From the sequence record OR906198.1: a stretch of 64,000 bases of DNA; one strand, 5' to 3'. The stretch's first letter is position 1; each line of letters starts with the position of its first letter. A program made the translations under genes and the position numbers. The DNA is from Escherichia phage BP32. The notes below the pieces were generated by a model. The model worked only from the letters and a program-made list of their open reading frames with translations, ran no database searches and had not been told where the DNA came from. Below, piece after piece: positions 102 to 57,234 of this stretch.

Positions 102-623
102 ATGTTTATTTCAAGTGGAAGTGGTTTAATTCGTGTTGAATTTAAAAATGACATCTTCCTTATTCAAGGAGATGATATTATTAAAATGAGTTATGACGAA
201 ATCAAGAAAATTTGTCACGCTCTTGAAAGTCATGGAAAGGAAAATGCTACTATCGATATAGGTGATTTATGGGTAACGCTTTATGAAGTATCCGAAGGAT
301 TTAACATTGAAGATGAAAATAACATTTTAGCTATTGATAAAAGGACCGATTTGTTTGATGTGTTAAAAGTTTATGAACAGTCAAACGGTGGAAGAAAAGC
401 CGTATTGATTTATCAAAAACCGCATTCATGTGGAACTGCTTCAATCATTTCAAATATTGAAGATGAAACTGATACCTATATGTGTGTTTTGAAAGCTGGT
501 GGTGACCGTCATCCGGATTTTATTTCTATTCGTCAAAACAATGGAGAAATTTCATTATCAAAATCAGAAGCTGAAGCTATGATTAAGTATTTAACAACTG
601 TTACACCTTCAATGAAAGGATAA
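102..623 (+). CDS. hypothetical protein (173 aa), nrdC-distal block
   Basis: Track ORF; ATG preceded by GAGGAAA RBS; tightly packed with the next gene. Confidence 0.7.
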   Translation: MFISSGSGLIRVEFKNDIFLIQGDDIIKMSYDEIKKICHALESHGKENATIDIGDLWVTLYEVSEGFNIEDENNILAIDKRTDLFDVLKVYEQSNGGRKAVLIYQKPHSCGTASIISNIEDETDTYMCVLKAGGDRHPDFISIRQNNGEISLSKSEAEAMIKYLTTVTPSMKG

Positions 624-625
624 TT

Positions 626-1072
626 ATGATTATTAATGAAAACTCTTGGCACGTTCGTATGCATGATTTCTTTTACTGGCAGCGTCCGAATTCTTTGTGT
701 AAATATTTCTGGAAAATGGCGTGGACGTTCTTAGTTATCGGTGTTATTTGCACATCGGGGCTATTAGGTAGTTGGGTGGTAGGACAAGCTATTTTAAGTC
801 AATTTGGTGTTACAGGATTCTGGCTTCTACATGCAGGCGGAACCGTATTTGGTGTACTGATATTTGCTACGATTGTCATTATTGCAGTAGGTATAGCATA
901 TATTGTAGCTAAGATTTCAGGTTTATGGGAAGGAGTCAGGTATGATAGAGCGTGGAAGCGTCAACAAGACGAAGAAAACGGTATTGAACATCCTAAGAGT
1001 GTAATCGTTGAATACCTTAAAGCTAGTAAATCTAAAATCTGCCCTATGATAGAATTTAAGGATGTTAAATGA
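626..1072 (+). CDS. small membrane protein (148 aa, 2-3 predicted TM helices)
   Basis: Track ORF; long hydrophobic stretches (WTFLVIGVICTSGLLGSWVVGQAIL; VFGVLIFATIVIIAVGIAYIVA); starts 3 nt after previous stop. Confidence 0.65.
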   Translation: MIINENSWHVRMHDFFYWQRPNSLCKYFWKMAWTFLVIGVICTSGLLGSWVVGQAILSQFGVTGFWLLHAGGTVFGVLIFATIVIIAVGIAYIVAKISGLWEGVRYDRAWKRQQDEENGIEHPKSVIVEYLKASKSKICPMIEFKDVK

Positions 1073-2079
1073 AAACAGTAATGAAAAGCTATTTTGGTAG
1101 TCATCTTTATGGAACTTCTACTCCAGAATCTGATGTAGATTTCAAAGAAATCTTTGTTCCTCCTGCTCGCGACATTCTTATCGGAAATGTTAAAGAGCAT
1201 ATGAGTAAAAACACTAACAACACATCATCTAAAAACACTAAAGATGATATTGACCATGAACTATACAGTCTTAAGTATTTCTTTAAATTAGCAGCAGATG
1301 GTGAAACTGTAGCATTGGATATGCTCCATACTCCACCTGAACTGGTAGTTAAATCTGATTTGCCTGATGTATGGAAGTTTATTCAAGACAATCGTTCTCG
1401 TTTTTATACGACTAACATGAAATCCTATTTAGGATATGTCCGCAAGCAAGCTTCTAAATACGGTGTCAAGGGTTCTCGTTTGGCTGCATTGCGTGATGTA
1501 TTGAAAGTAGTTAATCAAATCCCTGATCAGTGGGTTGATTATCAAGAAGACGGTTCCATTAAGCAACGTCGTACTAAAGTTGAAGATATTAAGCATCGTC
1601 TTCCAGAGAACGAGTTCTGTGAATGGGTGTTCCATAATCACGAGAAAACAGGCCCGCAAACGTTCTATACTGTGTTGGGTCGTAAATATCAGACAACGCT
1701 TTCTCTTATTGAGCTTAAGCAGTCACTGAACAAATTAGATGCTGAATACGGCGAACGTGCTCGTAAGGCTGAAGCGAATGAGGGCATTGACTGGAAAGCT
1801 CTTAGTCATGCTTGCCGTGGTGGACTCCAACTATTGGAAATTTACAAAACTGGTGATTTGGTTTATCCACTCCAAGATGCTCCATTTATTCTCGACGTGA
1901 AGTTGGGTAAACATCCATTTAAAACTGTTCAAGAGTTTTTGGAAGATGTGGTCGATCAAGTAGAAGCAGCATCCATTGAAGCTTCTAAGAACGGTATGCA
2001 GCAAAAAGTAGACATGAGTTTCTGGGATGACTTCCTTGAGAGGGTTTATCTTGAAAACCACCGAAGTTATTATAAATGA
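1069..2079 (+). CDS. nucleotidyltransferase-fold protein (Pol-beta superfamily-like motif), 336 aa
   Basis: N-terminal YFGSHLYGTSTPESDVDF matches the hG[GS]x(9-13)Dh[DE]h NTase signature; ATGA overlap with upstream gene; terminator follows. Confidence 0.6.
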   Translation: MKTVMKSYFGSHLYGTSTPESDVDFKEIFVPPARDILIGNVKEHMSKNTNNTSSKNTKDDIDHELYSLKYFFKLAADGETVALDMLHTPPELVVKSDLPDVWKFIQDNRSRFYTTNMKSYLGYVRKQASKYGVKGSRLAALRDVLKVVNQIPDQWVDYQEDGSIKQRRTKVEDIKHRLPENEFCEWVFHNHEKTGPQTFYTVLGRKYQTTLSLIELKQSLNKLDAEYGERARKAEANEGIDWKALSHACRGGLQLLEIYKTGDLVYPLQDAPFILDVKLGKHPFKTVQEFLEDVVDQVEAASIEASKNGMQQKVDMSFWDDFLERVYLENHRSYYK

Positions 2080-2082
2080 TAA

Positions 2083-2106
2083 GGGAGCCTTCGGGCTCCC
2101 TTTTTT
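2083..2106 (+). terminator. rho-independent terminator
   Basis: GGGAGCC-TTCG-GGCTCCC hairpin followed by TTTTTT, directly after stop at 2079. Confidence 0.8.
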
Positions 2107-2130
2107 ATTTCAAAAATTTTTCATAAAACT

Positions 2131-2160
2131 GTTTACAAGCATAAAGCTTTATGGTACTAT
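2131..2160 (+). promoter_or_regulatory. T4-type early (sigma70) promoter
   Basis: -35 GTTTAC (2131-2136), 18-bp spacer, -10 TACTAT with upstream TGG; A/T-rich upstream region. Confidence 0.65.
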
Positions 2161-2194
2161 ACAACTATCAACTGATACGGATTTGGAGAATAAA

Positions 2195-3163
2195 ATGAAA
2201 ACTGTAACTATCAATAAAGGTATCTACTTCGGTAAAGAAATCTCTGGAACTTTTGAGCTCTTAGGCGAATGGTTCCCAGATAATGCTCCGGTAGATGCAC
2301 AAGGAGATGGTAAAGTTTTTGTTGAAATTGACGGTAAACGTCGCGGTGTTTGGGTTTACAAATCAGATATTTCATATGATGGTGTAAAAGTTGAAGAAGT
2401 TAAAGAATCATATGAAGATATGAAAACCCGCATTAATAAAAGATTTAATGTTATGGGAATGATGACGAATGGTATTATTAATGGAAATATTCGTTCATTA
2501 ATTATCTCTGGCGCAGCAGGTATTGGTAAAACGTATTCTTTAGATAAAGCTTTAAATAAAGCAAATGATATTGGATACATTGAATATAAAAGCATTAATG
2601 GTAAAATCTCTGGTATTGGTCTTTATGAGCAGCTTTGGAATAATCGTGAAGAGAACTCTGTCCTTTTGATTGATGATGTGGATGTTTTCTCTGATATGGA
2701 CATTCTTAATCTTCTGAAAGCTGCTCTGGACACTGGAGAGACCCGTAAAGTCTGCTGGAGCACTGCATCTTCTTACTTAGAAGAAAAAGGCATTGACCGT
2801 GAGTTTGAATTTAAAGGAACGATTGTTTTTATCACAAACGTTGATATTGACCGCGAATTAGACCGTGGTACTAAACTTGCCCCACACTTACAAGCATTAG
2901 TGTCCCGCTCAGTTTATTTAGATTTGGGTGTTCACACTAATGAAGAAATTATGGTCAGGGTTGAAGATGTTATTCTTTCAACCGACATGATGCAAAAGCG
3001 CGGTCTTTCTGATGAAGAAACTTATAAAGCATTATCATGGATGAAAGTTAATGTTAATCGTTTACGCAATGTTTCACTGCGTACTGCTCTTTATCTTGCT
3101 GACTTTATTATGACCGACAAAAACGGTTGGGAAGAAATTGCTGAGGTTACTCTTCTGAAATAA
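2195..3163 (+). CDS. P-loop NTPase (AAA-like ATPase), 322 aa
   Basis: Walker A GAAGIGKT and Walker B-like VLLIDDVD; ATG after GGAGAATAAA RBS; track ORF 2027 start is an upstream extension through the promoter. Confidence 0.7.
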   Translation: MKTVTINKGIYFGKEISGTFELLGEWFPDNAPVDAQGDGKVFVEIDGKRRGVWVYKSDISYDGVKVEEVKESYEDMKTRINKRFNVMGMMTNGIINGNIRSLIISGAAGIGKTYSLDKALNKANDIGYIEYKSINGKISGIGLYEQLWNNREENSVLLIDDVDVFSDMDILNLLKAALDTGETRKVCWSTASSYLEEKGIDREFEFKGTIVFITNVDIDRELDRGTKLAPHLQALVSRSVYLDLGVHTNEEIMVRVEDVILSTDMMQKRGLSDEETYKALSWMKVNVNRLRNVSLRTALYLADFIMTDKNGWEEIAEVTLLK

Positions 3164-3264
3164 TTCATAAGAGGACTTCTATGACAAAAAGGCAGTTCAG
3201 AAATAGATTATATGGACTGCCATTAAAAAGATGACTAGAATTAAACTGGTGAATGGAGGTAGTG

Positions 3265-56302: not shown

Positions 56303-56566
56303 ATGAAATTTAAATTTTATTACGCTAAACATAAAATAACTGATGAGTTTGTGTCAGTTGAATATTCTAGCGACGATGAAGGTATGATTTATACTCGCTT
56401 GGGACTATCGCATTGGGAGTCTGATACGCCTTATTTTTCAACTCCCGAAGAAATTACACGCTTAGTTAATGGTCATATGAATGACCACTGGAATGTAATT
56501 CTTTCAGATAGTCTTAAAGCGGCTATTAATAGTAATGAAATGAAAATCGCTGAGATTGAACTATGA
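56303..56566 (+). CDS. hypothetical protein (87 aa)
   Basis: ATG at 56303 after ACGGAGGAGTAAAA; track start 56210 runs through the promoter. Confidence 0.6.
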   Translation: MKFKFYYAKHKITDEFVSVEYSSDDEGMIYTRLGLSHWESDTPYFSTPEEITRLVNGHMNDHWNVILSDSLKAAINSNEMKIAEIEL

Positions 56567-56649
56567 GTTCATTGTGGTGGTGTTTCGTTTGGTTAATTAG
56601 TATTCCATTAATTTGTTTAACATTTACTTTTATGATGAGGTTATTATGA
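56563..56649 (+). CDS. hydrophobic micropeptide (28 aa)
   Basis: Hand-translated MSSLWWCFVWLISIPLICLTFTF...; ATGA overlaps on both sides. Confidence 0.3.
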   Translation: MSSLWWCFVWLISIPLICLTFTFMMRLL

Positions 56650-56744
56650 AAATTTTAAATTCTGTACTTATTGCTTGTGCGTGGTGGGTTGCGCAAGTTT
56701 CGGCAGTAGTGATTGGTATTCACATTTATTACGAATATTTTTAA
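56646..56744 (+). CDS. hydrophobic micropeptide (32 aa)
   Basis: Hand-translated MKILNSVLIACAWWVAQVSAVVIGIHIYYEYF. Confidence 0.3.
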   Translation: MKILNSVLIACAWWVAQVSAVVIGIHIYYEYF

Positions 56745-56751
56745 AAAAGTT

Positions 56752-56781
56752 GTTTACAAGACTGTTCCTCTGTGGTATTAT
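56752..56781 (+). promoter_or_regulatory. T4-type early promoter (cassette copy 2)
   Basis: -35 GTTTAC, -10 TATTAT; cassette nearly identical to 3570-3627. Confidence 0.6.
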
Positions 56782-56808
56782 TACCCTATCAACTACGGAG
56801 GAACAGAA

Positions 56809-56922
56809 ATGAAAAAGATTGTTAAAGCTATATGGAATGTAGTTATAATACTAGTAGTTTTGAGTATATTCCCAATCGTTTTAATGATTGATGTATTAAA
56901 CGCTTACTTTGGATTTATATGA
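56809..56922 (+). CDS. hydrophobic micropeptide (37 aa)
   Basis: ATG after ACGGAGGAACAGAA leader; MKKIVKAIWNVVIILVVLSIFPIVLMIDVL. Confidence 0.45.
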   Translation: MKKIVKAIWNVVIILVVLSIFPIVLMIDVLNAYFGFI

Positions 56923-56929
56923 GGAAAAT

Positions 56930-57127
56930 ATGAAGCGTAAACGCAGTGCTTTTACATTTATTGAATGGTTTTTCGATAATATTTTTCCAGCTTTATTCAT
57001 TTTCATGCTGATTTTCGCCTTAGGTTCAGTTGTAGTTGGAATCTATTTGATGGCAGTTGTCGGAATGGATATTCACCAAAATGGTTTGAAATCTGTGGTT
57101 GAAACAATTTGGAATGGTGTAAAATGA
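56930..57127 (+). CDS. small membrane protein (65 aa)
   Basis: ATG at 56930 after GAGGAAAAT; hydrophobic core. Confidence 0.5.
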   Translation: MKRKRSAFTFIEWFFDNIFPALFIFMLIFALGSVVVGIYLMAVVGMDIHQNGLKSVVETIWNGVK

Positions 57128-57234
57128 TGAATTTGCTGAGCGGTTGGTTTTATATTCTCATGTTTTACATTGGCGCAAATTTCCCATATTGGATGGGATG
57201 GTCAACAACTGCATTTGGATTTTATACTCCTTGA
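57124..57234 (+). CDS. hydrophobic micropeptide (36 aa)
   Basis: Hand-translated MMNLLSGWFYILMFYIGANFPYWMGW...; ATGA overlap. Confidence 0.3.
   Translation: MMNLLSGWFYILMFYIGANFPYWMGWSTTAFGFYTP

Follow-up and report, generated by a model that had tools for sequence, protein, structure and literature searches.

A gene at positions 1069-2079 of a stretch of 64,000 nucleotides from Escherichia phage BP32 (sequence record OR906198.1; the whole stretch is hereafter called the window) encodes a 336-aa nucleotidyltransferase (NTase) of the Pol-beta type and the RlaP family (PF10127), and sequence comparison identifies it as the ortholog of bacteriophage T4 nrdC.11. The enzyme is probably an early-expressed, template-independent RNA 3'-nucleotidyltransferase that mends over-trimmed tRNA halves for sealing. 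Its family, its fold, its catalytic residues, the structure of its operon, and the RNA-repair neighbourhoods of its relatives were all obtained in this analysis. Since nrdC.11 of T4 and the RlaP family have both been described before, and since the literature already contains the idea of repairing damage by RloC, this main result is not new and does little more than confirm the nrdC.11/RlaP assignment. What is new is that a hypervariable membrane protein with two transmembrane (TM) helices, encoded directly upstream of the NTase gene, repeatedly accompanies RlaP and RNA ligases, and that the phage-type clade of RlaP differs from the assayed bacterial enzymes and adjoins them in bacterial repair operons.

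Identity, motifs, and fold of the nucleotidyltransferase

1069-2079, + strand: gene 3, NrdC.11 ortholog, RlaP-family Pol-beta NTase (synteny with T4; PF10127; PHROG 388, E 1e-136; 99% identity to the T2 protein)

Many Tequatrovirus genomes match the first 3.2 kb of the window at 96-97% identity, and by this measure its source is a T2/T4-like Tequatrovirus. The T4 map runs the other way; there, the 336-aa gene bears the name nrdC.11 (NP_049709, "nucleotidyltransferase"), and nrdC.10 comes next. The T4 gene agrees with that of the window in its place between nrdC.10 and the mobD.1 region, in its length of 336 aa, and in the terminator and early promoter that follow it. It was noted as an NTase already in 2006, under COG3541 (PMC1524935). 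The protein matches the Pfam family PF10127 (RlaP) with 43.9 bits, above the gathering score of 23 (E 3e-11), though only with its N-terminal domain (aa 6-134 against positions 23-142 of the 249 profile positions), and PF10127 is also precomputed on all of the homologues listed for this protein. All other Pfam families gave sub-threshold matches only, and a scan of NCBIfam returned nothing except MntA, at 13 bits against a cutoff of 60.

A preliminary description of this DNA, made from the sequence alone, had recognized a Pol-beta-type NTase signature at the extreme N-terminus of the protein, and this is indeed present as the motif GSHLYGTSTPESDVDF at aa 10-25 (GS…DxD). Its conservation was assessed in an alignment of 86 family members (34-84% identity), drawn from an exhaustive search that gave 3,421 cluster representatives with E ≤ 0.001. 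G10, S11, S21, D22, and D24 are found in 86 of the 86 sequences, so that the GS…DxD residues are fully kept in the homologues. The further acidic residue for which a check had been proposed is D62, which lies on the next core strand (residues 61-67 of the model) and is aspartate in 85 sequences and glutamate in one. D84 is kept in 82/86, and N56, Y131, R230, K243, H247, R250, and K278 are also invariant. In other words, the three parts of the Pol-beta catalytic signature, namely hG[GS], DxD, and, on the following strand of the core, a third carboxylate, are all in place.

An AlphaFold2 model built on the same alignment (predicted local distance difference test score, pLDDT, 94; predicted template modelling score, pTM, 0.82) consists of an N-terminal alpha/beta NTase core (approximately aa 1-135), a beta-rich insert (approximately 150-210), and a helical bundle (approximately 213-335). 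Fold comparison of this model returns NTases, with HalB (PDB 9dbh) as the top structural match; no NTase came up when a PDB set without PfRlaP was searched by sequence, whether the query was the protein alone or the family profile. Because an absence of the NTase fold and a loss of the GS…DxD residues among homologues were both looked for and neither was found, the NTase call of the preliminary description stands.

The match to HalB, a 217-aa bacterial defence protein that makes oligodeoxyadenylate and has a membrane partner, is the sole reason for raising a Hailong-like reading. The phage NTase would then make oligodeoxyadenylate or another oligonucleotide signal, with the two-TM protein as a HalA-like effector, or a phage signal would keep the HalA channel of the host closed. 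We regard this as very improbable. The identity to HalB is 15%, HalB is not found by the profile search of PDB sequences, PADLOC gives no hit, and no solved channel matches the fold of the 148-aa two-TM hairpin. HalB is said, in work by Tan et al. from 2025, to carry a C-terminal priming tyrosine; the C-terminal tyrosines of the phage protein are not conserved in the 86-sequence alignment. HalB also has other genomic associations than NrdC.11, since the neighbours of the NrdC.11 subfamily are RtcB, Pnkp, Hen1, Ro60, and RNA ligases and not channels, and T4 has the NTase without the membrane gene. Thus neither a HalB-like enzyme with a C-terminal tyrosine nor a HalA-type channel was recognized here.

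The same pairing of an NTase and a small membrane protein had led the preliminary description to compare the locus with CBASS-like modules, in which a CD-NTase is combined with a TM effector, and with AbiE/MenT-like tRNA nucleotidyltransferases. In such a module, the enzyme would either produce a nucleotide signal, cyclic or linear, or act as a toxin on the tRNA acceptor end, and the TM protein would be its effector or partner. The generic layout of a Pol-beta NTase plus a small TM protein fits this comparison, as does the sub-threshold MntA match. Against it, no CD-NTase/cGAS-type sequence or fold was detected, AbiEii and MenT gave no match in Pfam or PADLOC, and the genes upstream of the NTase are of the y05I and two-TM families and not an AbiEi-type antitoxin. 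Neither half of the comparison was therefore borne out; the reading is largely refuted, and we give it hardly any chance. The features of an MNT-HEPN (type VII toxin-antitoxin) system, an MntA-type minimal NTase with a HEPN toxin, were likewise not found. PADLOC applied to four proteins of the window returned nothing except a sub-threshold "2TM effector" match of the membrane protein (E 0.06), which was disregarded as compositional.

Relationship to RlaP and the gene neighbourhoods of relatives

The RlaP family, reportedly named in 2016 by Burroughs and Aravind, includes PfRlaP and PaRlaP of the Pseudomonas RtcB operons, and its NTase domain and catalytic motifs are homologous to those of NrdC.11. 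When aligned with canonical full-length RlaPs by hhalign, the protein gave a probability of 94% and an E-value of 8.5e-8 over 117 N-terminal columns, with GSHLYG paired to GSRAWG, SDvD to SDYD, and D62 to the invariant D73; its catalytic residues thus align to the invariant G25/S26 region, D37, D39, and D73 of canonical RlaP. The order of an N-terminal NTase domain and then a C-terminal helical domain, described for PfRlaP, is also that of the NrdC.11 model. Unlike canonical RlaP, however, NrdC.11 is approximately 80 aa longer, has the beta-rich insert, and falls into another cluster of the sequence similarity network (SSN) of the family, as given in a preprint of December 2025 that lists T4 NrdC.11 as a PF10127 member (Carruthers et al., PMC12776372).

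A genome-wide scan showed that an NrdC.11-like subfamily also exists in bacteria and archaea, at 33-54% identity. The neighbouring open reading frames (ORFs) of these loci were clustered, and representatives of the clusters were scanned. At 11 bacterial loci, a canonical full-length PF10127 RlaP (E 3e-51) lies directly downstream of the NrdC.11-like gene on the same strand. In Nitrosospira (L122), the order is RtcB, RtcA, the NrdC.11-like gene, canonical RlaP, and Hen1; in Asticcacaulis (L141), it is Pnkp, the NrdC.11-like gene, and RlaP. A fusion of kinase, phosphatase, and Rnl1 directly precedes the NTase at another locus (L131), and Ro60/TROVE lies upstream of the NrdC.11-like NTase at three loci. 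Gene sets of this kind are the classical modules for RNA repair in bacteria. On a phage contig (L174), an AAA_33 kinase gene overlaps RlaP, with Rnl1 and Rnl2 nearby. It should be mentioned that in four RB43-like loci (L049, L054, L055, and L060), an ORF for a putative RNA-binding protein, similar to the ProQ C-terminal domain (PF24203), stands directly upstream and overlaps the start of the NTase.

Because of the PF10127 match and this repair context on the one hand, and the unaligned C-terminal region of approximately 200 residues on the other, sequence comparison places NrdC.11 within RlaP in the Pfam sense and by context, yet in a distinct clade. The presence of the two clades in one repair operon implies, as far as gene order can tell, that their activities are non-redundant and not identical.

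A probable role in the repair of tRNA halves

RNA repair as a phage counter-defence has its founding example in the T4 Pnk/Rnl1 pathway, which RloC-type nucleases have been proposed to defeat by excising the wobble nucleotide. According to the mechanism that we favour, a host anticodon nuclease of the RloC type, a "smart" ribotoxin, would cut the tRNA and trim 1-2 nucleotides from the 5' half. NrdC.11 would then add 1-2 nucleoside monophosphates (NMPs) to the 3'-OH, using D22, D24, and D62 with a divalent metal, after which Pnk and RNA ligase 1 or 2 would reseal a full-length anticodon loop. Sealing by Rnl1 or Rnl2 would be possible at this point because both ligases need a 3'-OH and a 5'-phosphate, and the 3'-OH end made by RlaP is the type of substrate needed by both. 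The purpose, undoing the damage of an anticodon nuclease, would be shared with the classical pathway, which counters PrrC, and NrdC.11 would add the restoration of nucleotides, a step outside that pathway. If this is true, the nucleotide-restoring step that was missing would be supplied by the RlaP enzyme that nearly all T4-like phages encode, and this can be tested in a model phage.

The addition of NMPs to RNA 3'-OH ends has been demonstrated for bacterial RlaPs only, and we infer the activity of the phage enzyme and its target in vivo. Two Pseudomonas RlaPs add 1-2 NMPs (or dNMPs) to the 3'-OH ends of RNA and not of DNA (PMC12776372). They prefer Mn2+ and, modestly, the 5' half of a cleaved-tRNA mimic, and they partially rescue the aminoacylation of a tRNA lacking one anticodon-loop nucleotide (PMC12776372). 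That RlaP restores the nucleotides removed by RloC before ligation has been predicted for jumbo phages (PMC7824862).

The bacterial RlaPs also label rRNA, tRNA, and tRNA fragments with any nucleoside triphosphate (PMC12776372), and this breadth, together with the only modest preference for cleaved tRNA, would suit a more general tailing or repair of RNA 3' ends that is unrelated to the anticodon loop, such as the rebuilding of CCA ends or the tailing of RNAs from host or phage so that their stability changes. The location of nrdC.11 in an early unit together with host-takeover genes and the ProQ-like RNA-binding neighbour in some phages also agree with such a role. On the contrary, the recurrent neighbours of the subfamily are ligases, end-healing kinases and phosphatases, and Hen1, which act on internal breaks and not on 3' termini, and neither Pfam nor fold comparison reveals any similarity to CCA-adding enzymes. 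General tailing is therefore an unlikely account of the enzyme, although it deserves more weight than either of the signalling readings above. The preliminary description had allowed that the protein could be a tRNA-repair enzyme and had named the CCA-adding family for comparison. The NTase nature and a possible role in tRNA repair hold, and the CCA-adding type gained no support: the combination of a PolyA_pol head with a tRNA-binding body and tail, as expected of a CCA-adding enzyme or poly(A) polymerase, was not found.

Several observations weigh against the proposed repair of tRNA halves by NrdC.11. Only the N-terminal residues, approximately 125 in number, align to canonical RlaP, and the C-terminal 200 or so do not; the assayed RlaPs belong to SSN cluster 1a and NrdC.11 to cluster 5 (PMC12776372). 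Both clades occur in tandem in bacteria, which again implies that they differ in activity. The association with RNA-repair genes holds for the loci of relatives and not for this window, in which no RNA ligase or Pnk gene adjoins the NTase gene, and the T4 genes rnlA, rnlB, and pseT lie 50-80 kb from nrdC.11. Moreover, any role of NrdC.11 must be conditional, because T4 grown in the laboratory can do without the block from nrdC.11 to mobD.3 (PMC9825161).

The two-TM protein and its genomic company

626-1072, + strand: gene 2, 148-aa two-TM hairpin, PHROG 944 (hydropathy, AlphaFold2 model, family alignments)
652-1003, + strand: hypervariable core of gene 2, covering both TM helices (DNA comparison with other Tequatroviruses)

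The gene preceding the NTase had been described as encoding a membrane protein with two or three TM segments, and two long hydrophobic helices are what we find. In the AlphaFold2 model (pLDDT 81), the TM helices extend from residues 24 to 59 and from 65 to 117, and the N- and C-termini are paired as short strands on the same side of the membrane, with cytoplasmic tails. In the family, S7, H9, C25, Y27, and C139 are invariant and W8, Y10, K137, and P140 nearly so; the conserved residues are in the tails only. The protein matches no Pfam family and no fold in the PDB. Its 350-bp core (652-1003) has no DNA similarity to other Tequatroviruses, and the flanks (23-651 and 1004-3200) are approximately 96% identical to them. 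The protein shares 35% identity with its counterpart in phage SP1, against 96.5-99.7% for the neighbouring genes, and an allele more than 95% identical to gene 2 was found in seven of 756 phage records. These sequence comparisons suggest that the membrane core undergoes rapid, sharp-edged replacement of alleles.

A single-sequence search with gene 2 reached two proteins, and a family profile reached more; the family is present in the above 756 phage records. In 45/78 related viral loci, the NTase gene has a member upstream of it in the same orientation. The two genes are directly coupled in Tequatrovirus, Dhakavirus, and Mosigvirus, and in other Tevenvirinae one extra gene lies between them. 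Taken by itself, the adjacency in the Tevenvirinae could be inherited synteny. The family also occurs elsewhere, however, in other gene orders. In Pakpunavirus of Pseudomonas (L005/L167; 123 records; E 1e-19 to 1e-22 with the hidden Markov model, HMM, of the family), the member stands between a helix-turn-helix gene and an Rnl1-like ligase with an AAA_33 kinase; genes for HD and metallophosphoesterase proteins lie a short way upstream. In the gp32-frd interval of one T4-like lineage, a member immediately precedes an Rnl2-type ligase; another lineage has one upstream of Rnl2 near uvsW, and one more contig has a member flanked by Rnl1 and a kinase-RlaP pair. Four other contexts of the family were uninformative. 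Altogether, in five of approximately nine distinct arrangements, the family member is no more than two genes from an RNA ligase or RlaP. By an informal estimate uncorrected for kinship, this suggests an excess over chance expectation for a genome with 3-4 such genes among approximately 280. Two-TM homologues stand beside Rnl1-like or Rnl2-type ligases, AAA_33 kinases, and RlaP at L005/L167, L168, L172, L182, L174, and L180.

Because gene orders that are not related to one another bring members together with RNA ligases, kinases, and RlaP, these sequence data suggest that this uncharacterized two-TM family is linked to RNA repair. Our best guess, held with low confidence, is that the protein may be an accessory partner of the phage RNA-repair enzymes, acting as their membrane anchor or regulator. 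A still wider proposal would join the two new observations: the two-TM family would be an unrecognized membrane-anchored component of RNA repair, the NrdC.11-type enzymes would be a distinct second clade of RlaP, and the two clades together would rebuild the 1-2 nucleotides excised by RloC-like nucleases. We offer this combination tentatively, with a chance that we put well short of even.

T4 itself provides a point against an obligatory partnership of the two genes. Its DNA is approximately 95% identical to the window from position 1068 onward; unlike phage BP32, it has mobD, a free-standing HNH homing endonuclease gene (PMC2988022), in place of genes 1 and 2 (T4 56429-57208 for window positions 121-1067). 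Because the mobD arrangement is limited to 47 near-identical T4-type records, compared with 756 that have the membrane gene, T4 is best read as a natural deletion of the membrane gene. The only candidate homologue of gene 2 elsewhere in T4 is the marginal e.4 (E 0.003-0.009, 12-14 bits), which was treated as not significant, and no credible homologue was seen in the bacterial NrdC.11-type loci. In other words, T4 keeps nrdC.11 without a credible copy of the membrane gene, the bacterial loci likewise have their NrdC.11-type genes without one, and the membrane gene is dispensable for keeping the NTase. The T4 genes e.4 (68301-68693) and e.3 (67957-68319) encode predicted membrane proteins and are the best, though marginal, T4 matches to the family HMM (E 0.003-0.05); these matches are probably compositional, and the two could also be very distant paralogs.

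The transcription unit and its surroundings

3-95, + strand: 3' end of the mobD.1 ortholog (y05I family; the frame-3 translation, ending in ...LNKEEAVLLKTYLDSVIPTMISK and the stop codon, matches the C-terminus of T4 MobD.1; T4 gene order)
102-623, + strand: gene 1, 173-aa soluble protein with Pfam T4_y05I_N and T4_y05I_C ("putative transcription factor"; E 1e-32 and 2e-23; PHROG 1502)
2081-2107, + strand: intrinsic terminator closing the unit (hairpin fold; terminator annotated after nrdC.11 in the T4 record U76612)
2132-2160, + strand: T4 early-type promoter, TTTACA-17-TACTAT with an upstream TG, serving the next unit; it is outside the operon and marks its downstream boundary
2195-3163, + strand: nrdC.10 ortholog, P-loop/AAA-like, a separate unit (context; syntenic in 36/78 related loci)

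Genes 1 to 3 were correctly recognized in the preliminary description as three co-oriented ORFs at 102-623 (173 aa), 626-1072 (148 aa), and 1069-2079 (336 aa), all on the + strand, with an ATGA overlap between the second and the third; the spacing between the first two is 2 nt (624-625) and not the 3 nt that had been given. Each is preceded by a Shine-Dalgarno-like site, and because many homologues were found for each, they are real genes and not chance ORFs. The strong terminator that had been placed at 2083-2106 was also confirmed: a hairpin at 2081-2102 with a stem of 9 bp, six of them GC pairs, is followed by a T-run and has a folding free energy of -19.3 kcal/mol (z = -4.7 compared with shuffled sequences).

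The three genes and their closing terminator thus hold as described, but they are not a self-contained operon. The mobD.1 ORF, which is co-oriented and cut by the edge of the window, has its stop at 95, only 6 nt before gene 1, so the transcription unit extends further in that direction than the window shows. In the T4 record U76612, nrdC.11 has annotated promoters at a distance of 1.5-2.3 kb on its upstream side, of which one bears the label early promoter 57.9, and a terminator behind it, which early promoter 54.4 follows before nrdC.10. From this annotation, the genes at 102-2079 are the distal part of a longer early unit, the distal end of which has the order mobD.1, mobD.1 paralog, two-TM protein, and nrdC.11.

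The nrdC.10 ortholog (322 aa) shows weak matches to P-loop/AAA and STAND-NTPase families, below Pfam thresholds. It was set aside as a functional partner of the NTase, because it has its own promoter past the terminator and is present in only the 36/78 loci.

Gene 1 shares 25% identity with T4 MobD.1 (E 4e-10) and, judged by this similarity, is its tandem paralog. In most Tevenvirinae loci, the gene immediately before the membrane gene is of the y05I type; more distant Tevenvirinae encode in that place a protein of approximately 70-85 aa that consists of the y05I C-domain alone.

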